Assembly (NCBI GenBank): GCA_000004985.1 | Contig: GG738845.1 | Length of the DNA: 64,000 nt | From: Naegleria gruberi | Lineage: Eukaryota | Reading direction: 5' to 3' (one strand) | Shown here: positions 45,701 to 61,239 of the stretch, piece after piece | Position numbering within the stretch: position 1 is the stretch's first letter | Layout: the number at the start of each line of letters is the position of its first letter | The notes under the pieces: model-generated | What the model was told of the DNA's origin: nothing | The model's input: only the letters and a program-made list of their open reading frames with translations | Databases searched by the model: none | Translations under genes and position numbers: made by a program

Positions 45701-45823
45701 CAACATCTTGATTTGACAGTCCAACAAAAAAACCAACAAGTACTTCAGTTAAAAACTTCCCTTGATAATTTAGTACAAGCATTCCAAAAGCTAAAGATAG
45801 CCCAAAGAGAAAATTTATTTTAA
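42756..45823 (+). CDS. Hypothetical ~985-aa coiled-coil protein. Four exons, with introns at 42824..42854 (31 nt), 43030..43073 (44 nt) and 43264..43304 (41 nt).
   Basis: Exon joins keep a single open frame: MRRSAFASASRTNDFDNIKNFE|ERTASFMNEVDSDDD...SHLF|NSIKSVASDYNEF...ISSIP|EAEEADTTTSEEARVYKRLDDLGYDD.... An ~800-aa heptad-rich coiled coil follows. The ORF-track M residues at 43053 and 43358 are TTG codons. Confidence 0.5.
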
Positions 45824-45841
45824 AGTAAAAAAAATTGCATA

Positions 45842-48800
45842 ATGATCAAAAATGACATTTATTCATCATCGGAATCTGATGACTCTGTAATGTTGAGCAG
45901 TGATGACAGTGACGAGGAAAATACATTGAAAAACGCTTTAAATTCTGCAAGAGAATTATCTAATATTAAACCTAATTTTGGCTATTCTTTCGACAATATA
46001 TCAACTTTTATACCAAACTTTGAAAACGGTATTAACAACAACCACCAAATTTACAACATTTCCCAAGCTATTGACTCTTCTGATACTACTAATTTGAATA
46101 TTTCCGATAGACTACTACATTTGAAGGAAGGGCTAAATTTTAATGAAAAGTATAAGCAATTACTGCAAAGCGAGATTGAAAAAATAGAGGAAGCACAAAG
46201 AAATGTAGGAACCATTCAGAGGGACATCAGAAAAGAGTTAATACAACGACAGAAAGGTCCTCCAATGTCACTTTATCCATCCCGAAAGAATCTTTCTCAA
46301 AATAATGGGAAAATATCAAAAAAGTTGGCTTGTGAATTTTTTGTAAACCTGGCTCAATCAAAGTTAAAAGCCTCAGGTAGTTCTGCTATTATTGTTGATG
46401 AGTACAATACTAGGATACTACAATCGGCTGCTATTGCATCGAAAGGAGCAGAAAAACCTAAAAAATCGAAAAAACAACAAAAAAAGAAAAAAAGAAACAC
46501 AGAGGATGAGGAATATATTAGTGACTCTGAATTCCAGTCTGATGATGATGGATATGATGAAGAAGTTGATAATGAAATAGATACAATAGAGGAGATGGCT
46601 GAAAATACAGTAATTATTCAGGGACCAGCTCCAAACTCTGATACACTCACTAGACAAGAATTTCTCAAACTTGTTCCACTTGTGTTTGATACTAAAAAGT
46701 GGTCTAACAATGAAATTAAAAATATTAGATATGCTGTCAGATTGCAACATCAAGAAATGGAGTGTAAGAGAGTTTTTGAAACATGTAAAGGAGATAGTAA
46801 CCTTTTAAAAAAAGAATTTGAGAAGGTTAAAAACATGTCAGGTGAGGAGTTAGAAAATATAGAGAGCTCGAAAATTGATTGGGAAAAAGTAGCAAAATTT
46901 TATGTAAAAACTAGGAAACCTGAAGAATGCAGGAAATTTTGGGAAATTGAACTGGCAAAAGATATTAAAAAAGATAACTGGTCTAAAGAAGAAGATATTA
47001 ATTTATTATATGTTGCAGACGATTCAAAGGGCCATGATTGGTCGAAAATATCCAACAAGCTTTATGAAACTCAACCTTTAAAAAGAAGACCTATTCATTG
47101 TTTCAGAAGGTACCAACGAAGTTTAAATACAAATATGATGAGAAGTAAATGGACTGAAGAAGAAGACAGGAAACTTATGGAGGCAGTAAAGTCATTTGGT
47201 GAAAAGAATTGGCAACAGATAGCCAATCAATTAGAAGAAAGGACAGGACAGCAGTGTCTGCACCGTTGGATGAAAACACTCAATCCTGCAATTAAAAGAG
47301 GAAGATGGACAGTTGAAGAGGATAAGCGGCTTTTAATGGCAGTTAATGCATACCCTTCCAACAATTGGGTTCTTGTTAATAGACACACACCTGGAAGAAC
47401 AGACGTGCAATGTAGAGAGCGGTGGTGTAACATTCTAAATCCAGTCCTGAATGTTGGACCCTGGACGAAAGAAGAAGATGAAAGTCTCAAGCGTGCCATT
47501 AAAGATCTAGGAGCTGGTAACTGGTCTAAAATTGCTGAGGTAATGCATCCCAGAACTGATAATCAGTGCTGGAGACGTTGGAGGTTGATAAGCTCAGAAG
47601 AAGTATCAGATTATAGAAAGAAGATTTACAAGAGGGAAAAGGCTCTCGTAAAAAACTTTGTTGGCAGAGAAAAGGAAAGACCTGATATAACTGCAGATGA
47701 TCTTCAAATAACTCATCCAGAAAGCGACAATAACTTGATCCAACTATCTATTTCAGAATTTGTAGAAAAAGATAGATCTCTGATTTTCTCTCAAAACTCA
47801 TTACTTTCAAGTACTATTTGTGTAGAATCAATGCAATCATTGCATCAATCACTCACCATCCCAAAACTAAAGAGTGTTCTTGAAATAGAATGGCAAAGAA
47901 TGGACCAAATACGTTTTCTTTTGGAGAAAACACCTTACTTTATTGGAGTGCCACTATCAAACATTTTGAAAAGAGTTATGAGCTTGATGTTTTCTCTCAA
48001 GGGTACACTCACTATCAAGCACATTTATATTCCAGAACTACCTAAAAAAGAAATTAGAATACAGACCTTTAAAAGCATGGTGGTTCCAATAGAAAGACCA
48101 GTTTTCTCTTTCCCTTGCATTGTACCAACCACTCTTTCTCCTTCTCTTCCATCAGTTACCGCAACTAGTGTATCCCTTAATGCTTTAGCAACTCTTCAAG
48201 ATGTACTATACAATAGAGGTAGCCCAAAAATGGCTACCACTACAGCAAAGGTGATAGATATCCAATCTAGTTCAGAGAAACTATCAACTTTCCAAATACC
48301 TGCTTTTCAGCCAACAACCAAAGACTGGGTTTATGAACCGCCAACTCTTGTTCACAATAACGCTTCTATTTTACATTCACCAGAGTTTAAAACTCTATCT
48401 AGTGTGTTTAATTCATTATTCCAAAAGCCTATGCAACAAACGATTGGTAAATTGGCAGAGAGATTACCTCATTTATTGAGACGAGTTCCTCATGCTGATA
48501 TTTTGAATAAGTCTATGGAAGAATCACAGACCAATTACCAACACATATGTCAAAATTCAAAAGATCCATTTATTATACAACAATCAAAATGGGAAACAGA
48601 AAAAACTCTCAGTGATCCACCTACATTTTCCACCGTTTTTTCATTATATCACCATTTACCAACTGATGATTTGTTTAATAGAAACGAAGCAAGCACTCTT
48701 CCCCAAGCTCCTTTGATTCTGGTTAAGCCCAAAGGTGTGAGAGGCAGACCAAAAGGATCAAAAAACAAAAAGACACTCGAACTCGAGAGACAGAGAAGGG

Positions 48801-49340: not shown

Positions 49341-50318
49341 ATGAGCAATTGGCTAGAGGCTAGACAAGGCCACGTTTCCCATTCCGGAATAGGAGAACAA
49401 AAAAGGGCACAGCCATCGCCAATAGCAAGTAATTCTCAACAAGTAAACTTTGTTTCAAATCTTAGTACCAGCGGAAGTAGTGGAGGCACTCCATCTGTTG
49501 TTCCAATTTTTAACATTCAGAAAGAAGTCGAAGATTTAAGTAATAAGATTTACTCTTTTATGTACACTGTGGGAAGGATAGAATCTCACACAAAAGAGTT
49601 GGAGAAAAAAGATTCAGATTCAGTTAAAAACAAATTAAAGGCACACAGGGAGAAGGCGAAAAAGGAACTACGATGGTTGCTGCAAAAGTTTGAAGAAATT
49701 TCTTGTAAAGCACCCAATCTCAAGGACTCAACTACTGAAAAAGTGTTTGAAAAGATAACGAAACAATTCAAGGATCAATTTGAGAGATTTCAAAATGTAT
49801 CAAAGCATTCGATAGAGGTTGAAAAGAAACACCTAATTAAGGTACACAGCAGATCGCGCCAAACTGAAAATTCTGCTCTTGTGGACGATACTGAGAATAA
49901 TGACACAGATGGGGAATATGAAGATCATAAATACGGAGTTGGAAAATACGAACAAGAGCAACAAGATTTATTCGAACAACGTTTAATTTTGACAGAGTTT
50001 GATCACAGTATGATTCAGACAGAAAAGGCGATCGCTGAAGAGAGATTGAATGAGCTCAAACAATTAGAAGTAGATATGAACGATATTTATTCATGTTATG
50101 TTGATTTAAGTTCAATGATTAAACAGCAAGGTGAAACAATGGACACAGTCGAGTCCAACATTTTAAAATCAAATATAATGGTGGAGGAGGGAGTGGAATA
50201 TATAGAAACATCCAGAAAGAAATTGTCTTATCGTTTAGTGATTCAATTATTATTGATTGCTGGATTTACTATTATTGTGATATTGGGAGTTGTATTGGGA
50301 GTGATATACATTATTTAA
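49341..50318 (+). CDS. Qa-SNARE syntaxin (endosomal Pep12/syntaxin-7-like) with a C-terminal TM anchor.
   Basis: The Habc-like helical N-terminus is followed by the SNARE motif ...TEKAIAEERLNELKQLEVDMNDIYSCYVDLSSMIKQQGETMDTVESNI... and the TM segment LVIQLLLIAGFTIIVILGVVLGVIYII. Confidence 0.75.
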   Translation: MSNWLEARQGHVSHSGIGEQKRAQPSPIASNSQQVNFVSNLSTSGSSGGTPSVVPIFNIQKEVEDLSNKIYSFMYTVGRIESHTKELEKKDSDSVKNKLKAHREKAKKELRWLLQKFEEISCKAPNLKDSTTEKVFEKITKQFKDQFERFQNVSKHSIEVEKKHLIKVHSRSRQTENSALVDDTENNDTDGEYEDHKYGVGKYEQEQQDLFEQRLILTEFDHSMIQTEKAIAEERLNELKQLEVDMNDIYSCYVDLSSMIKQQGETMDTVESNILKSNIMVEEGVEYIETSRKKLSYRLVIQLLLIAGFTIIVILGVVLGVIYII

Positions 50319-51986
50319 CTGTAAAATAAATGAACTAGCTCTGATAAGGTTAGCCAATTATGCAAATCTCTTTCGGAAATGCTTGTATCAGAAACTCTGT
50401 TTCTTACAAATGTTTGAGTAGCAAGTTGATTAACATCTTGAGTCAATTTGATATCCTTGTAATTGTTCCTTGCTATTTGGCTAATATAAGATTGGAATAA
50501 TAGGGACTGACTATCATTAATTGCAGGAATTTCTAAAGATTTTTCAGGCAATAATTTAACCAAATAATTTACATCTCTGTGGAATAGACTTTTACCTTTG
50601 GAAATTATTACAACTGGAATGTCAACATTCATTATAAGTGGATGATATGAATAATCATAGTCAACTTTTTGTGAAGAAATAAGAGTTGATAGATGGGAAA
50701 TATTTCTCATAGCTCCTTCAAGTAAATTTCCTTCCCGAAGAGAGTTTTCGTCAATAATGAGATGTGTGCCTGATGGTAATTGTAAAAGGCCTGATTTTAA
50801 CTTATCCATTTGATAATCCTTAACAGGGGCTAGTCTGGTATGTTCAAGATTACTGCTTGTCATTTCAAAGAGGTACGAAGAGGGAAGAAGGGTGTGAAGA
50901 ATTTCATCCATCTTTTTAGCAGTATCCTTGTCACAGTTATAGATATTCAGAATGAATTTTCCAAGTGTTACCCCATAATTATGAGAACGACTTTACAATG
51001 CCATTATTATTTAAATTAATTGTGTTAACTTACACTCTGCTAATAAGATTGTACAATAAAAGTTCTGCAACCAGACAATCACCTCCAAAAGCTAAAGTTA
51101 AATATTCCAATAACTGATTTCTGACAATATCCCATGAATACTCCGAATTAGTAATTGTTACAACATCAAACACAGATTTGTATTTTTTAAAGAACAAGAC
51201 ATGTAATCGTGGGACAAGAGTTGCTTCGGGTCTAAAATTGCAAAATTCCTCCTCTTCATCTGTACACATTTTGTTAGGTGACTCAAATGTTAAAATTCCT
51301 ACAAAATCTACAAGTTCAGTATTTTTGAATCCAAAGTCTTCTCCATATAGTTTAATAAGACAAGCGAGACCATCTTCTCCTTTGATGGGGAAGTCCAACA
51401 TCTCATCTCTATCAGAAACAACAGATCTCTTATCAGAAGTAGAAATATTTTCATGAAGTTGTCTTTTTTTCTTTGTTTCCAATTCCAGCTCATCTGACAT
51501 GTCATCTGATTCACCTTCTGAATCTTCATCATTTCTTTTCCTTTTTGTGTTTTGTACTGTTGATTTTTTGAGTGTTGATTTGTTCACTTCTTCGTTTTTG
51601 TTGGTGTTATTAGGGTAGAATGAAGTTCGTGACCACTTTGCCTCCCCTGGTATCGGAATGCAATAGAATAATTCTCTTTCAATCATCACATTGTCGTTGA
51701 AAAAATTATTGTCATCATACCCTGCTTCTCTATACAAATAATTTGCTGTTACTAATTCAGTATTATGTACATCTTGTATGATGCCTCTATATTTGACCAG
51801 AGTATTTGGGGTTGACATTGGATTTAAAGAAGGAATAATTTTAAACATTTCGTCAGATCCGAAATGTTCTTCGTAGCATTTGGACATTTGTAAATGAACA
51901 TCGATTGGATTGGCAAGATTTTTACTTTTAATCAGCTCTTCCAATATTTGAAAGGGGTTTTCTATCATTAGATTGGTTGCATTCAT
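50315..51986 (-). CDS. MCMBP: MCM-binding protein (MCMBP). Two exons (51034..51986 and 50315..50990) with a 43-nt intron at 50991..51033.
   Basis: ...IIPSLNPMSTPNTLVKYRGIIQDVHNTELV...ELFYCIPIPGEAKWS... matches human ...[32 protein letters not shown]...TFYCVPVPGESTW.... The C-terminal ...LLQLPSGTHLIIDENSLREGNL...ISSQKVDYDYSYHPLIMNVDIPVVIISKGKSLF matches LLQLPSNTSLVIDETLLEQGQL...ITWQKVDYDFSYH.... The stop codon overlaps the syntaxin stop codon. Confidence 0.8.
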
Positions 51987-52015
51987 TTTTTTTATTTAAT
52001 TATTAAATAATTCAA

Positions 52016-52627
52016 TTACAGCATTTCCTCTACTAACGACTTTAGAACATCTGCATGACATGGCCGTTCATACCTCTCACAAAAACACCCAATTTTCTTT
52101 CCTTTCAGTTCATGTAAAGAATTTTTCAAGTTTGGTTGAGAAAGAATGTAATCTCTGTACTTTTCTAAGGATTCTTTCTTGGGTAGTTTTTCGAAAGGGT
52201 TTGCCCATTTGGACTCGTTTAATTGCCACCCACTATGAAAACATCTTGAGCCAACATAAACATCACAATTTTGTATCGTTTCACCTTTCTTTTTTCTTAT
52301 TCTAACAACTTGTGTTTGAGTGTCAATAATTTCAATATCTAATTGGTTTCTTGTTTTCGGTTTCTTTTTCTTGGGAGAAATAACGCACGGGATGAGTCTA
52401 CCGGTTGTTTGACTCTTAATAAACAGGTTTCCATTTAGTTTTTTCATTGGAATATTTACATTACTATTGTACAGTTCTTGGTTGCTTTCCATAACATCTG
52501 AAAAATATCGTTTCCTTTTTTGATCATTTATTTCCGGTTCATCCATTAGGCTGTTCTCTGTTGTTTGGGTTTCTTCTGAAAATGTAAGAACAAAAATGCC
52601 TGCCTTCTTCTCCTGGGAGGTTAACAT
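52016..52627 (-). CDS. DUF4326-domain protein (a bacterial/phage-type domain) with a basic, NLS-like N-terminal extension. Intronless.
   Basis: The C-terminal ~80 aa ...VYVGSRCFHSGWQLNESKWANPFEKLPKKESLEKYRDYILSQPNLKNSLHELKGKKIGCFCERYERPCHADVLKSLVEE matches the DUF4326 consensus as I recall it (..iGR......skWGNPF......a...Y..yl.....L..L.Gk.LgCwC.p..CHgdvL). The N-terminus contains PKKKKPKTRN. Confidence 0.55.
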   Translation of the reverse strand: MLTSQEKKAGIFVLTFSEETQTTENSLMDEPEINDQKRKRYFSDVMESNQELYNSNVNIPMKKLNGNLFIKSQTTGRLIPCVISPKKKKPKTRNQLDIEIIDTQTQVVRIRKKKGETIQNCDVYVGSRCFHSGWQLNESKWANPFEKLPKKESLEKYRDYILSQPNLKNSLHELKGKKIGCFCERYERPCHADVLKSLVEEML

Positions 52628-52794
52628 TTTTTTTTATTGTTAGTTCTTGCCCACACTGGAATTGGTTGGCATCAAAAATATTAACTATTTTTTTTAAAAA
52701 AATGAAACCATAACCACAAAACATCAAATCAAACAACCAACAACCAACAGCTAGAAAAATGTATACATAGTATCGAACGAAAGATCAAAAACAC

Positions 52795-52940
52795 AGCTCA
52801 CGTCCACAAAGGATCGTTACTAATTCTGTCATGATACCCTCGCCAGTGTGAGCTCATACACCACATGTTGACTAAAGAAACAGCATTCAGACCCTCAAGT
52901 CAAGTGACTGTGCCGAAGTCATCATACAATACTTTTTTCT
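52795..52940 (+). ncRNA. Candidate small structured RNA, possibly a Pol III transcript, in a locally GC-richer island. Identity unknown.
   Basis: A ~140-nt segment has clearly higher GC than its surroundings. It ends in ...catcatacaatacttttttc (a T6 run). tataca lies ~30 nt upstream of 52795. A perfect 7-bp stem is formed by agctcac (52795) and gtgagct (52848). No match to any snRNA or tRNA that I could recall. Confidence 0.15.
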
Positions 52941-52962
52941 TTTAATTATTTAATTTAATTCT

Positions 52963-55900
52963 TTATTCATTCCACACACATTTTTCATAATTAAAAGAAA
53001 AATCTTCTGAACACTCCACTTCTACCATGTATGACTTCGAAACAATCTCTACTTTTTCCAATAATGAAATAATATCATTCATCTTGTCGGATCGAATTAT
53101 CGACTCCTCTGTAAAGTAGTCTCCAATTTGTTGCAAAGAGGAAAGCCTTTTGAACCATTCAGCTAATTTTCTCTTATTGAATGCGTTAACGACAAACAAA
53201 ACAAATTTAACATCATTTGGCTCTGTGAGCTTGATTTTGGCACTAGAAACTAGATCATTAATACCATGATAAATGTCCTTGATTTCTCCTTGTGTTTTTT
53301 CTGCCTTTTCAACGTAGAACTTGATAAAATCCCAAAAGTAATACCTTCCAAAGAATTTAAAAGCTCTAAAACCAACTTCAAATATTGCAAGAAGTGATCT
53401 AGATAATTTTCTTTTAACAATTTTCTCCATGTCCTCAGATAACTCTATCTTACATTTAATTTCAGCCAAAATAGATTTCAAGTTTTCAATTGGTGGTGCA
53501 TTTGGAAAGTCAATTAAAAGGTTATCTGCAATTAATTGTTGTATCTCCTCACTTGTTTCAAACAGGTCAATATTTTTGATTTTGAATTTAGATTGTTTTT
53601 TAGAGAGGAATATCAAATCTTCCTTGGTATTAGGTTGATAAAGGATGGATGAAGGGGCAAAGAATTCTTTGAGAAATTCTGTGGATGTGAAAAAGGATTC
53701 CCAAAAGTCCTTACTGAAAAAACCATTTACATTTAAATAGTACACATAAAGAATAGACAGAGAAAAATATTCCTTATCTAAACTTGTTGATAATTTCAAA
53801 TCTGAAAAGGATTTTTTAAATCCTCTCAACTTTTTGACAAGCTTTTTCAATTTGGTTTGAGTACTAATTTCAGATTCCTTCTTAATAGAGTTCATAAGAA
53901 AATCTACAAATTTTGGAATAATAATATTGTAGAGGAAGGTTGGTGTGTTGTGCCCAATACTACATTGGTCAGACAGGATTAGAGAGTATTGTCTAGCTAT
54001 TTCTATTACGTATTGGTCGTTATAGTTTAAAATTACCTTATTTTCTTCATCTAACTTTAACTCTCCTTTGGCTAGTTTTTTGTATAAAGTAGATAAGGTA
54101 TTGTCTATCATCTCAATTGCTGGAGGTGTTTGTGTTTTGTTTGCTTTGCTTGGAAGTACTGCTTTTTTCTTTTCTTTGTTTTCATCTATTTGCTTGCCCT
54201 CTTCTTTCCTCTCGTCTTGATAATTTTCATTTTTTCCTTGATCACTTACATTCTCAATTTGAAAATTACTTTCCACTTTATCTAATATAATCTTAGATTT
54301 TCCTGCTTCATTATTGGATTGATTATTAAAGACAACTTTTTGTTCTAACTCTGAAATAGATTTTTCTGAAATCTTGATATGGGTTTCCTTTTCTGAAATA
54401 GTTTTTTGAAATTTTGTTTCTTGATCGAGAAGTTCAATAAGTTTCTGTTTAAGTTCATTTTCTTTTTTGGATAATTCTGATAATGATTTTTCAATAATTG
54501 TCTTTTCAAGTTCATGGGATTCAATTTGTTGTTCTTTTTCTTGTTTTTCTTTCTCATAACTCTTGACACTATTTTCTTTTTCTAATATATACTCTTCAAG
54601 CTTAGCTATTTGATTACTAATGTCAACAAGGTTCCTGTCTAGCTCTAAACTTGTTATTTCTAAAATCTTGACATTTCTTCCCTTTTCTAATATTGATTTT
54701 TCCAAAATCAGAACTTGACCTTCTTTTTCTACTATGCAACCTTCAAGTTTTGATTCCTGTTTATCAAGTTCAATAATTTTTTTTTCGATATCAGAAATTG
54801 TATTTTCTAACGTCTTAATATTATTTTCCTTTTTTAAAATTGATTTCTCATATTTCTTAATATTATTTGTCTTCTCTACAATGGATACTTCAAGATTTTT
54901 TTCTTGAGTAACAAGTTCTGAGAGTTTTTTGTCAAGCTCTGTAATTGTCATTTCTAAATTTTCTATAGTATTTTCCTTCTCTACAATAGAAGACTCTTGA
55001 AAATGTTGCGTTTCAACAAGAGAGTTTTTAGCTTGGTTATTAAGGTCAACAACTTTTTGTTCTAACTTTGAAATAGATTTTCTGATATTGGTTTCCTTTT
55101 TTGAAATAGTTTCTTGAAGTTTTGTTTCTTGATTGAGTAGTTCAATAAGCTTCTGTTCAAGTTCTGTAATTATCATTTCTAAATTTTTGATGATATTTTC
55201 CCTCTCTATAATAGAAGACTCTTTGAAATGTTGTGTTTCAACAAGCTCATTTTCTTTTTTGGATAATTCTGATAATGATCTTTCAATAATTGTCTTTTCA
55301 AGTTCAAGTTTTCCAATTTTTTGTTCTTTTTCTTTTTTTTCAATTTCTAGTTTGTAAACATTATCATGGAGTTCTTTGGTTTTGCTATCCAAATCTGCCT
55401 TTTCTTCCATTGATTTAGTATATTCAGATTGTTGATTCATTAATTGTACTTCAAGATCTGCAATTATTTCACACATTGCAACTTTTCTTGATGAAAAATC
55501 TGCAAAATCGTGCTGCAATCTTTCTTTCTGCAAACTGGTCTCTTTCACAATGTCTTCCACTTCCTTATTCATTGAAGAAATATTTTCAACATTTTGTGTT
55601 TCCTTTTCCAAATTTTCTTTTAACAATAACATTTGATTTTGCAAAGAGGATTTTTGCTCTTCCAAATTAATAGCTTTGAATCATACTCGGAAATATCTTT
55701 TCTCAATTTTTCAACAACTTTTGTGTCTTCTTCTACTTGTAGTGTTGACTGAATGATATTATCTTGCAAATTATTGGCTGTAAATCTTAATTCATGCAGT
55801 TCGTGTTGCTTTTTCGAAATTGAAATTTCGTTATCCTTAATTTCTGTTTCCAATTTGAAAATTTCATTCTCTAACCCCTTTATCTTTTCCAAACATGTAA

Positions 55901-58900: not shown

Positions 58901-61239
58901 TGCTTTCTTGAATAGAACCTAGAATGCTATTCATTTGGTCGATTGAAGAAATGAAACTTGACTTTAGGTGATCCTCTTTTTCAATAGTTTTTAAACAAGC
59001 TTTCAGCTTGCCCTCCTCTCTTTCCGCAATGGCTTCATCCACTAAAAGTTCCATCTTTTGGATGTCATATCTTTCCCACAATTTCCATTGACTGTTGACA
59101 AAGCTTTCACTAAAATTTGCAGAAATACTAGACAATACTGCACTAAATTCTTCCTTTCCAAGTGATAAATTAATTGGAAGTAACGAATTTTGTGTTTGAT
59201 GTAATTGGCATACTCGGCTCCAAATTTCCGAAATTTCTGCGTCTTTAAAATCGTTTCTAATTTCTTTCTGAACAATTTGGAAATTTGATAAATCTCTTGT
59301 TTTTAACATTGTTTCTAGCTTGTATTTGATGTCTAACTCCTCCACGGAAACGGAGAGCAGAGAATCAAGCAGTAGTTTCGCTTCATTTCTCAAATTCTGC
59401 CATTTTTCTGTTTCTGATTTTATTCCATCTGNNNNNNNNNNNNNNNNNNNNNNNNNNNNNNNNNNNNNNNNNNNNNNNNNNNNNNNNNNNNNNNNNNNNN
59501 NNNNNNNNNNNNNNNNNNNNNNNNNNNNNNNNNNNNNNNNNNNNNNNNNNNNNNNNNNNNNNNNNNNNNNNNNNNNNNNNNNNNNNNNNNNNNNNNNNNN
59601 NNNNNNNNNNNNNNNNNNNNNNNNNNNNNNNNNNNNNNNNNNNNNNNNNNNNNNNNNNNNNNNNNNNNNNNNNNNNNNNNNNNNNNNNNNNNNNNNNNNN
59701 NNNNNNNNNNNNNNNNNNNNNNNNNNNNNNNNNNNNNNNNNNNNNNNNNNNNNNNNNNNNNNNNNNNNNNNNNNNNNNNNNNNNNNNNNNNNNNNNNNNN
59801 NNNNNNNNNNNTCTTTATACCAGACTCTAGAAGTATTTGTGTGAATTTTTGTTGTTTTTCTGCAGAAAACGTTTCAGACTTTTCTATAATATTTTTGATT
59901 CGTTGTACCACTTCCTTCTTTCTTCTTTCCTTCTCTTCTACCATGTTTTGATCGGTATCATTAAGAGAGAGAAATGTAAGAGCGTCTTTTAGAATATCTG
60001 AAGCAATAATCCTTTCGATTTCATTCAAAAAAGAGTTAACAGCTGCTTTCACTTGATTAAGGTCTTGTTTTTGAAGAGCTATTGACAGCTCCTTCCGTTT
60101 TTCCAAGGCTCCAGAAAATGATGAAAGACAGGTATGGGTTTGTTTGAGTAATCTAACCATATTAGTAGGAACCTGACTGTAAAATATTTCTAAATCTTGC
60201 TGATTACCTTTTTCCAGGGATTTTACAAAAGAATTTATCATTTCTATGATCCTTTTTGTTTCATCCACCAATCTTTGAGTTTTGTTTACCTTGTGGGATG
60301 TTTCTTTTCCAAACTGGGTCGAGAATATTGTTAGGTTCTTGGAGTAGTTATTATCAAAACTTTCTACTTTTAATCTTAATTTCTCATCTCCAAAATTCAC
60401 AACTTCCAGGATATGACCATCAATGTTATTGTACAATTCATTAAGAAAGGTAGTTGCTTCCTTCTCAATATTGTCCATACTTTGAATGAAGTTTAGTTTT
60501 TCCTGAAATAATTTTGTTGCATTTTCTACAGCATTTCTCAATGACTGATCTTTAAAATCAAATATATTTTGCTTTAAACCTGCCCTATAGACAGTTAAAA
60601 GATGGTGGATCTCTTCTAATTTTTCGTTTTTGATAGAAACTTCAAGGCTTTGCAAAAACTCATCTCTCTTTCTTCCTTTCCATCTCCTTAACAGAAATGA
60701 GTTAATGATCAATATAACTTTACCTACATTTTATCATTTCCTGTAGAAAATTCAATAGAATTTAAAAAAGAATCCAAGTTTTTTTGCAAATTAACAATAC
60801 TACCACTAACTTTCTCTTGAAATCTTGAATATTGAGCTTGCATAGATTTCATTTCGTCCTCTATGGAGTCAATTTTAGTCCTTATTACTTCTATTCCTTG
60901 TGAAAAATCATCTTGATCCAATAAAACAAAATTTTCCTTCACATTCTTATCACCAGTGCTTTTTTCTCTTGGGTTTGAAGGTGATTTAAGATGGTCATCT
61001 CTTTCCGAAGGACTTTCAAATCTTGGTTGGTATCTAATCAAGCTTGGGCTTTTCGTTGGACTTTCCAAACGTAAAGTGTTGTTACTACTATTATACAAAG
61101 ATGTGTTTTCAAGAGAAGTTTCCTTCCTCACTGGTGATTTTAAAGTTGGCGAAGCATATCTTTTGAATATTTCACTGGGAGTAGAAAAAGTTGCTCCAAA
61201 TGTCTTTGAGTGCGATGATGGTGTTCTCCTCTCACTCAT
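52963..61239 (-). CDS. Giant (~2700 aa) coiled-coil protein with a Ser-rich N-terminus and a C-terminal ~330-aa globular domain of unknown type. It is interrupted by a 41-nt intron (60687..60727), a 380-nt N gap (59432..59811) and an apparent frameshift near 55670.
   Basis: Four collinear minus-strand ORFs (60724..61239, 59420..60712, 55620..59393, 52963..55665) are all heptad-rich and E/K/L/I/N-dominated. The first two join through GTAGGT...gttaag, giving ...GNDKM|RWKGRKRDEF. The last two overlap by 46 nt in different frames, but the protein reads continuously (...KDISEYDSK/AINLEEQKSS...) if 1 nt is added or removed. Confidence 0.5.
54340..55340 (-). repeat. Internal direct repeats (~800-nt period with shorter nested copies) inside the giant coiled-coil gene.
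   Basis: Near-identical ~50-nt stretches (ttttttggataattctgataatgat[c/t]tttcaataattgtcttttcaagttca) occur at ~55263 and ~54463. The 54341..54480 and 54931..55010 segments are similar to 55061..55250. The protein repeats are ...EKTIIE[RK]SLSELSKKENEL...QETK[LF]Q[EK]TIS[KE]KET.I..SISELEQKVV. Confidence 0.7.
59432..59811. other. Assembly gap of 380 Ns, a scaffold join inside the giant coiled-coil gene.
   Basis: A literal run of n characters. The reading frame across it cannot be tracked. Confidence 0.99.

Follow-up and report, generated by a model that had tools for sequence, protein, structure and literature searches.

A long-form DUF4326 gene adjoining MCMBP in Naegleria gruberi and its heterolobosean orthologues

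The window analysed here is a stretch of 64,000 nt from Naegleria gruberi (contig GG738845.1 of assembly GCA_000004985.1). On its minus strand, directly upstream of the gene encoding MCMBP, lies a complete open reading frame (ORF) of 203 codons whose product ends in a DUF4326 domain (Table 1). The neighbouring genes in the window encode, besides MCMBP, a RUN-domain protein, a syntaxin-like protein, a Myb protein, IFT57, a kinase and RRP44. A preliminary description of this DNA had taken the ORF for a bacterial or phage-type gene, acquired horizontally long ago and since domesticated. We find that the gene is old and kept by selection, and we suggest a different affiliation for it.

The intronless frame runs from ATG to TAA exactly as first described. 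About 0.02 stop-free runs of 203 codons would be expected by chance in the whole window, counting six frames at 33% GC. The assignment of the start codon is supported by the orthologues described below, since the N-terminal sequence MLTSQEKKAG lines up with the N-termini of the Naegleria orthologues. With a GC content of 0.348 and a GC content at third codon positions (GC3) of 0.319, the ORF falls inside the range of seven neighbouring coding segments from six genes (0.29–0.36 and 0.24–0.33, respectively), in agreement with the host-like composition reported earlier.

The C-terminal part of the protein matches the Pfam family PF14216 (DUF4326) over residues 112–196 and profile positions 2–81 of 82 (E = 1.8e-15, 57.8 bits, gathering cutoff 25). 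The family assignment made earlier from motifs is thus upheld by a significant profile match, and every motif quoted at that time is present, namely S139-K-W-A-N-P-F145, L174-K-G-K-K-I-G-C-F-C183 and C190-H-A-D-V-L195. PHROG_464, to which no function is assigned, also matches the protein (E = 8.7e-20), and the NCBIfam and PADLOC libraries gave no match. The columns that are invariant in the family are all present (S139, W141, N143, G180, C181, C183, C190 and H191), as are the near-invariant K140, P144 and D193. All 101 members of the second of our DUF4326 alignments (A2) likewise match PF14216. The loop that carries the conserved cysteines, hereafter the Cys loop, is 3 residues longer in the window protein than in most members of the family.

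The domain is preceded by an extension that contains a basic patch, PKKKKPKTR. In an AlphaFold2 model built with an alignment of 101 sequences, residues 100–203 are modelled with a predicted local distance difference test score (pLDDT) of 88–98, and residues 1–95 have a pLDDT of ~48–59 and no secondary structure, as in a disordered region. Within the patch, S84, P85, K86, K87, K88 and K91 are invariant among N. gruberi, a metagenomic Naegleria sp. (L004), Naegleria lovaniensis and Willaertia magna. The basic N-terminal extension of the preliminary description is thereby corroborated, its patch being invariant or nearly so across the four orthologues. The patch resembles a nuclear localisation signal (NLS), from which we infer nuclear targeting.

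Table 1. Features at the DUF4326 locus, with positions in the window.
Feature	Position	Strand	Evidence or remarks
DUF4326 gene, 203 aa, single exon, complete	52016..52627 (including TAA stop)	-	ORF listing, ATG start
Long-form DUF4326 domain, aa 94-203	52019..52348	-	Pfam part aa 112-196 = 52040-52294; pLDDT 88-98
Cys loop G180-C-F-C-E-R-Y-E-R-P-C-H-A-D193	52049..52090	-	C181, C183, C190, H191 invariant in alignments A1 and A2
N-terminal extension, aa 1-93	52349..52627	-	predicted disordered; length varies by species; islands SQEKxAGxFVLT, KR, LIPxVxSPKKKK
Basic patch S84-PKKKKPKTR93, like a monopartite NLS	52349..52378	-	alignment of heterolobosean orthologues
Spacer from DUF4326 stop to MCMBP ATG, 29 nt, A/T-only	51987..52015	-	direct read; contains AATAAA, no GT or AG
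MCMBP, coding exon 1 (downstream neighbour)	51030..51986	-	PF09739, E 3.7e-46, profile positions 5-322
MCMBP, coding exon 2	50315..50911	-	PF09739, E 2.7e-48, profile positions 354-551
Spacer upstream of the DUF4326 gene, 335 nt; presumed promoter/5' region and 3' end of the RUN gene	52628..52962	-	
Large coiled-coil protein with RUN domain, C-terminal part (upstream neighbour)	52963..55665	-	PF02759, E 8.9e-09
Syntaxin-like gene, convergent with MCMBP; also next to MCMBP in Willaertia magna (synteny anchor)	49341..50318	+	identical to XP_002683085.1

An exhaustive HMMER scan of 1.84 billion representative sequences returned 2466 clusters at E ≤ 1e-3, five of which reach E ≤ 1e-30. These five are the query itself, a protein of a metagenomic Naegleria (P0002), XP_044549349.1 of N. 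lovaniensis (C9374_004341, already annotated as a DUF4326 domain-containing protein), ABK040_012340 of W. magna, and a tandem two-domain protein. Over the matched stretches, the window protein is 68% identical to the N. lovaniensis protein and 58% identical to that of W. magna. The four heterolobosean proteins have in common the island LIPxVxSPKKKK, the sequence G[SN][RK]CFH(G/S)GW in place of GRxxxxGGW, and an extended GCFCE..ERPCHAD; the island SQEKxAGxFVLT is found in the Naegleria proteins only. Their extensions differ in length, that of N. gruberi being the shortest (93 residues, versus 258 in N. lovaniensis and 179 in W. magna). In a neighbour-joining tree of 59 domains (104 columns, 500 bootstrap replicates), the four orthologues form a clade with 99% support, within which Naegleria is grouped at 92%, so that they branch like the species.

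A conserved neighbourhood accompanies this species-like branching. MCMBP lies within 7 kb of the DUF4326 gene in three of the four genomes, and the synteny proposed for examination in the preliminary description is to that extent borne out. The two genes adjoin each other directly in N. gruberi and are ~4.7 kb apart in W. magna, where MCMBP is convergent with a syntaxin-like homologue (46% identity); on the contig of the metagenomic Naegleria the distance is ~5.2 kb. Nonsynonymous divergence (dN) is ~0.23 over the C-terminal 128 codons, with a proportion of synonymous differences (pS) of 0.67–0.89, which is saturated, and pN/pS is 0.49 in the N-terminal extension versus 0.24 in the domain. The gene is under purifying selection and predates the split between Naegleria and Willaertia. 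Its orthologues in N. lovaniensis, a second Naegleria and W. magna, together with this selection, bear out the earlier view of an old, domesticated gene.

Two further observations were made in W. magna. A gene of the SIR2 family (L003 8730-10915, contig JBEGDK010000144.1) ends 81 nt upstream of the DUF4326 orthologue on the same strand; no SIR2 gene turned up in a Pfam scan of 13 ORFs of the window. A second paralogue of 210 residues, ABK040_003719, is encoded at an unrelated locus (L091 6001-6633, contig JBEGDK010000099.1) and has YIGR, GCWC and CHGD. Because this paralogue is canonical and lies elsewhere, Heterolobosea hold at least two DUF4326 lineages.

The alignment of 59 domains separates two forms of DUF4326. 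In the short form common in bacteria and phages, one stretch reads VVHCKKExYDVYIGRPSKWGNPF, and its counterpart in Naegleria is VVRIRKKKGETIQNCDVYVGSRCFHSGWQLNESKWANPF, with insertions of 6 and ~10 residues. We informally define a long-form subgroup by xGxx[IV]Q before C-D-x-Y-x-G and by xxxxGGWxL before SKW, and the window protein carries both insertions. By regular expression, this signature is present in at least 125 of the 154 top HMMER hits and in all 99 new profile hits. It is found in the second Willaertia paralogue, in Thecamonas trahens and Capsaspora owczarzaki, in Orpheovirus and Solumvirus, and in EukProt transcripts from the amoebozoans Thecamoeba, Cavostelium, Stenamoeba and Phalansterium and from the rhizarian Lapot gusevi. 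Medusavirus ORF330 and Acanthamoeba XP_004336203.1 also count among the long-form relatives. Every named relative among the top 120 of the profile search is a protist or a giant virus.

Class-specific hidden Markov models (HMMs) point in the same direction. The window domain scores 127.5 bits with the model of eukaryotes and nucleocytoplasmic large DNA viruses (NCLDVs), 98.7 bits with that of bacteria, phages and metagenome-assembled genomes (MAGs), and 79.9 bits with that of actinobacteria. The first model was trained on named eukaryote and NCLDV sequences only, with Heterolobosea left out. We conclude that the label "bacterial/phage-type" does not describe the gene, given the two insertions, the advantage of 29 bits and the protist and NCLDV affiliation of the named relatives. 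Neither is the family known essentially from bacteria and phages, as had been supposed: it occurs in protists and NCLDVs, and the literature had already described DUF4326 from jumbo phages and from NCLDVs that infect amoebae (PMC7824862, PMC9503650) and a medusavirus/Acanthamoeba gene pair with an inferred direction from amoeba to virus (PMC6450098).

The giant-virus long forms (Solumvirus A0A3G5AGA3, Orpheovirus ORPV_1115, Pandoravirus, Marseillevirus, Pithovirus) have the same two insertions, share the motifs QxCDxYxG...GGWxL..SKWxNPF and GCxC...CH with the Naegleria protein, and are 42–47% identical to it (Foldseek E 8.6e-12 to 1e-7). They differ in keeping the YIGR arginine, the W of GCWC and a short KPxPCHGD loop, all of which are altered in the Naegleria protein, and in lacking the heterolobosean N-terminal extension; many of the viral proteins are fusions that add Macro, SLOG, NADAR or further domains (PMC9503650). 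A Foldseek search of the BFVD viral models gave DUF4326 matches at E 8.6e-12 to 3.7e-05 with a probability of 1.00. The best was Solumvirus, and the best viral structures (Solumvirus, Pandoravirus, Marseillevirus and Pithovirus) rank above those of phages. Bacterial and phage DUF4326 proteins share the core YIGR..SKWGNPF, LxGKxLGCWC and CHGDVL with the long form; they are usually stand-alone, 90–110 residues long and without the two insertions. The phage matches comprise 316 records, all below 60% identity and at 32–42% among the matches listed; examples are Xanthomonas phage XacN1 ORF394, Salmonella phage TR2 and the "NrdA.1-like" protein of Bacillus phage KLEB27-3 (32–41%). Bacterial DUF4326 is found at 276 loci, and proteins from cultured bacteria are 34–46% identical.

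The closest relatives outside Heterolobosea, P0016 (57% identity) and P0017 (55%), are both encoded on virus-like contigs. A module of an rve integrase, an A32-like ATPase and a DUF4326-NADAR protein occurs on two independent, tightly packed contigs (L008 1088-4521 and L092 8217-11155), the second being the 24-kb contig that encodes P0017 and also a dNK/thymidylate kinase. This gene set looks like that of polinton/virophage-like elements of eukaryotes. Contig L008 (CBDICY010000020.1), which also carries another DUF4326 gene (L005), was probably assigned wrongly to its bin, a Saprospiraceae MAG. On L012, labelled as a Candidatus Colwellbacteria MAG, a PARP-catalytic-like ORF (546-1637, E 3.2e-05, below the Pfam cutoff) adjoins a long-form DUF4326 gene, and the unidirectional, lysine- and glutamate-rich ORFs of this contig may be those of a mis-binned eukaryotic virus. 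We take the MAG bin labels to be unreliable because of the polinton/virophage-like contig L005/L008 and the PARP-like gene on L012, and the top long-form hits in GTDB MAGs were for the same reasons rejected as evidence of bacterial origin.

Several long-form proteins carry additional domains. Anonymous metagenomic proteins (P0016/P0187, P0008, P0005) combine the long form with dUTPase, DHFR or a SWIM zinc finger; the dUTPase fusion sits on L093, a virus-like contig of ORFans, and the RING-like match that accompanies the SWIM fusion is below the Pfam cutoff. Tandem copies in one polypeptide were also observed, two of the long form in P0012 and three of the short form in the P0015 cluster (P0155-P0159).

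What the domain does can be approached from its modelled structure. The fold consists of a beta-meander (106–125), two helices (150–174), a strand (178–181) and a terminal helix (191–202); the loop that joins this strand to the terminal helix carries C181, C183, C190 and H191. In the model this strand-Cys-loop-helix layout puts the cysteines where rhodanese and phosphatase folds, a superfamily that includes RapZ-C and DUF488, have their catalytic Cys loop; DUF4326 differs in having no CX5R phosphatase motif. PF22751 (DUF488-N3a) matches the Cys-loop/helix segment weakly (E 0.0089, 16.8 bits, below the cutoff of 27), and in 7 of 101 family members the same profile matches at E ≤ 0.01 (best 8.5e-4), always over this segment. 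RapZ, PRL phosphatases and tetrapyrrole-methylase-like folds are among the structural hits, all below significance.

DUF4326 has been predicted to be catalytic, with the terminal ribose phosphates of ADP-ribose derivatives as its targets (PMC9503650), and fusions of DUF4326 with SLOG-like/phosphoribohydrolase domains are described from amoeba viruses (bioRxiv 10.1101/2025.06.06.658234). In phages, neighbours of DUF4326 include thymidylate synthase, an NrdA.1-like annotation and a DprA-like protein. We favour a role in NAD+/ADP-ribose and nucleotide metabolism because of the NADAR, dUTPase and DHFR fusions, the phage neighbours, the SIR2 gene in Willaertia and the PARP-like neighbour. The protein is probably a nuclear Cys-loop enzyme that belongs to a RapZ-C/DUF488/DUF4326 clade and has phospho-ribose or nucleotides as its substrates. 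In such a scheme the conserved PKKKKPK patch would take the protein to the nucleus, where the loop C181-x-C183...C190-H191, leading into the helix, would bind a ribose-linked phosphate and act on it. Candidate substrates are molecules derived from ADP-ribose, nucleotides and modified nucleic-acid ends.

Taken together, we put the probability at roughly 70% that this is a genuine, vertically inherited nuclear gene that combines a disordered basic extension with a long-form DUF4326 domain and acts by the proposed Cys-loop mechanism. We regard it as excluded that a bacterial or phage-type gene entered N. gruberi recently or in this lineage only. The orthologues in N. lovaniensis, a second Naegleria and W. 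magna, with their species-like topology and linkage to MCMBP, go a long way towards refuting the import proposed in the preliminary description. Some of our results weigh against the preferred reading. MCMBP is not within 10 kb of the DUF4326 gene in N. lovaniensis, and the linkage elsewhere may be plain synteny. The split between long and short form has a bootstrap support of 7%, and only shallow clades resolve in the 59-domain tree. Cultured Actinobacteria have their own divergent long form, so the insertions are not strictly eukaryotic; with this form and the weakly supported deep tree, an ultimate origin in bacteria may still lie behind the gene. On the functional side, the DUF4326 family has no known biochemical activity and no solved structure. 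The near-invariant Arg of YIGR is replaced by S127 in N. gruberi and N127 in the orthologues, followed by R or K128. The orthogroup also has F in place of W182 and A in place of G192, and its Cys loop is longer; because of these changes its activity could be altered or lost. The heterolobosean orthogroup is, by its sequence, a divergent branch of the long-form subgroup. Finally, the three cysteines and the histidine could form a structural zinc site instead of a catalytic loop.

As to how the lineage first obtained the gene, three histories may fit the sequences: it was taken up long ago from a virus or mobile element; it goes back to early eukaryotes, with losses and repeated host-to-virus transfers; or it came from a still older bacterial source. 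The horizontal acquisition proposed earlier survives in part: because the tree backbone is weakly supported, an ancient transfer may have taken place, but a bacterial or phage donor is not supported by the insertions and the class HMMs. The domain phylogeny gives a similarly divided answer, with a 99% heterolobosean clade whose species-like branching argues against import and a backbone that indicates no donor. In the bootstrap tree, no bacterial or phage clade encloses the heterolobosean sequences with support. A horizontal donor, if there was one, would, as these data point to, belong to the gene pool of protists and giant viruses rather than to a bacterium or phage, and exchange with viruses is the more likely route if an ancient transfer occurred.

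A first alternative is an ancient capture from a giant virus or a polinton/virophage-like element by a heterolobosean ancestor, with the extension and the NLS-like patch gained afterwards during domestication. The long form is abundant in amoeba-infecting NCLDVs, the nearest relatives outside Heterolobosea lie on virus-like contigs, the domain is scattered unevenly over the eukaryotic supergroups, with a bias towards phagotrophic amoebae and flagellates, and exchange of this domain between viruses and amoebae has been published (PMC6450098). In that published case, however, the direction between Acanthamoeba and medusavirus was from amoeba to virus. Furthermore, no viral sequence among the 1.84 billion representatives exceeds ~57% identity to the heterolobosean clade, the tree backbone supports no sister group, and the gene is surrounded by no viral hallmark genes or compositional island. 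We hold such a capture to be a tentative possibility. The separate idea that the locus is an endogenised giant-virus or polinton island was rejected, considering its host neighbours, the lack of viral hallmark genes, the uniform GC content and the synteny kept with Willaertia.

Descent from an early eukaryotic ancestor, with many losses and with repeated pick-up of the gene by viruses and mobile elements from their hosts, would account for its presence in Discoba, Amoebozoa, Obazoa (Thecamonas, Capsaspora) and Rhizaria, for the species-like branching within Heterolobosea and for the second, canonical paralogue in Willaertia, and the inferred direction in the medusavirus case agrees with it (PMC6450098). 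We find this scenario rather doubtful, as the distribution is very patchy, with no animal, plant or fungal names among the top hits, there is no supported eukaryotic clade and no match to the species tree beyond Heterolobosea, and the pool in viruses and mobile elements is large.

The third alternative concerns the function. The domain would not be an enzyme but a zinc-stabilised module that binds nucleic acid or a nucleotide-derived ligand and serves as a nuclear adaptor. The invariant C181, C183, C190 and H191, with C121 of the long form, make a plausible CCCH or C4 ligand set, the near-invariant YIGR arginine is lost in the orthogroup, and RapZ, a proposed relative of DUF4326, acts as an RNA-binding adaptor. 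On the other hand, the structural hits are all below significance, the modelled strand-Cys-loop-helix arrangement fits the active-site geometry of phosphatases and rhodaneses, the domains fused to DUF4326 are those of enzymes that act in the metabolism of ADP-ribose and nucleotides, and the published analysis predicts catalysis (PMC9503650). We judge a non-enzymatic adaptor unlikely.

Direct transfer from a bacterium or phage into the Naegleria lineage, with the eukaryotic features as later ameliorations, which was the earlier interpretation, appears very improbable: DUF4326 is common in phages and bacteria, core identities reach 40–46%, near the 45–57% of eukaryotic and viral long forms, and the tree backbone is without resolution, but typical bacterial and phage proteins do not have both insertions, the euk/NCLDV model leads by 29 bits, at least one "bacterial MAG" long-form hit comes from a mis-binned polinton-like contig, syntenic orthologues exist in Naegleria species and Willaertia, the composition of the gene is host-like, and Amoebozoa, Rhizaria, apusomonads and Filasterea express proteins of this form as well.

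Returning to the locus itself, a direct reading of the sequence places the DUF4326 stop codon at 52016-52018 and the MCMBP ATG at 51984-51986, which confirms the distance of 29 nt, on the same strand, given in the preliminary description. The possibility that the ORF is an upstream exon of MCMBP was rejected, as the orthologues are separate genes elsewhere and MCMBP of Willaertia is complete without it. The DUF4326 and MCMBP ORFs are independent genes, since the spacer has no splice dinucleotides and the orthologues stand apart at other positions. The close spacing looks like ordinary N. gruberi compactness, and overlapping or read-through transcription may occur across the spacer. Same-strand gaps of 19 nt (45823-45842) and 27 nt (59393-59420) also separate long ORFs in the window; some of these may be introns, and the 19-nt gap divides two annotated genes, to judge from the accession numbering. 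In the spacer upstream of the DUF4326 gene, the segment 52735-52935 has a core GC content of 0.42–0.50 versus 0.12–0.23 in its flanks and, on the minus strand, a C/D-box-like UGAUGA...CUGA. A small nucleolar or otherwise structured RNA was considered here and rejected: there is no Rfam match, the folding z-scores are -0.5 and -1.2, and the segment is not conserved at the loci L003, L004 and L090.

Four single-exon window ORFs are identical to RefSeq proteins of N. gruberi strain NEG-M (RRP44, XP_002683420.1; IFT57, XP_002683082.1; XP_002683416.1; XP_002683085.1). The 203-residue protein has no entry in NCBI, UniRef or EukProt, although neighbouring NEG-M genes have records. Its exact sequence is recorded only on two metagenome-derived contigs (L001 and L002) from the sample ERR1078381. 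The DNA of the first of these shows 99.4% identity to the window, and because of this identity and the identical protein we take it to be another strain of N. gruberi in which the ORF is intact. The ORF appears to be missing from the N. gruberi reference gene set, since only metagenome contigs carry the exact protein while its neighbours have RefSeq entries.

It is tempting to go one step further and suggest that the MCMBP-linked gene is a domesticated counter-defence gene of a giant virus or polinton. Its product would act in the host nucleus at the time of replication and remove or process phosphate adducts that derive from ADP-ribose and sit on DNA or nucleotides, and the lost YIGR arginine and the extended Cys loop of its active site would reflect a new host-specific substrate. 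We consider this a long shot; if true, it would provide a tractable cellular entry point to DUF4326 chemistry. The wider significance of our findings is modest, as both the domain and its occurrence in amoebae and NCLDVs were known before, and the orthologue of N. lovaniensis had been annotated. They add an apparently missing gene to the reference annotation of N. gruberi, and they define a divergent, nuclear-looking orthogroup of a domain that is predicted to take part in NAD+/ADP-ribose and nucleotide-centred conflicts between viruses and hosts. What had been regarded as a phage-associated domain is a widespread gene of phagotrophic protists and giant viruses, and in this case an old host gene maintained by selection. 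Because Naegleria and Willaertia can be cultured, the orthogroup could allow the function of DUF4326 to be tested in a cellular organism for the first time.

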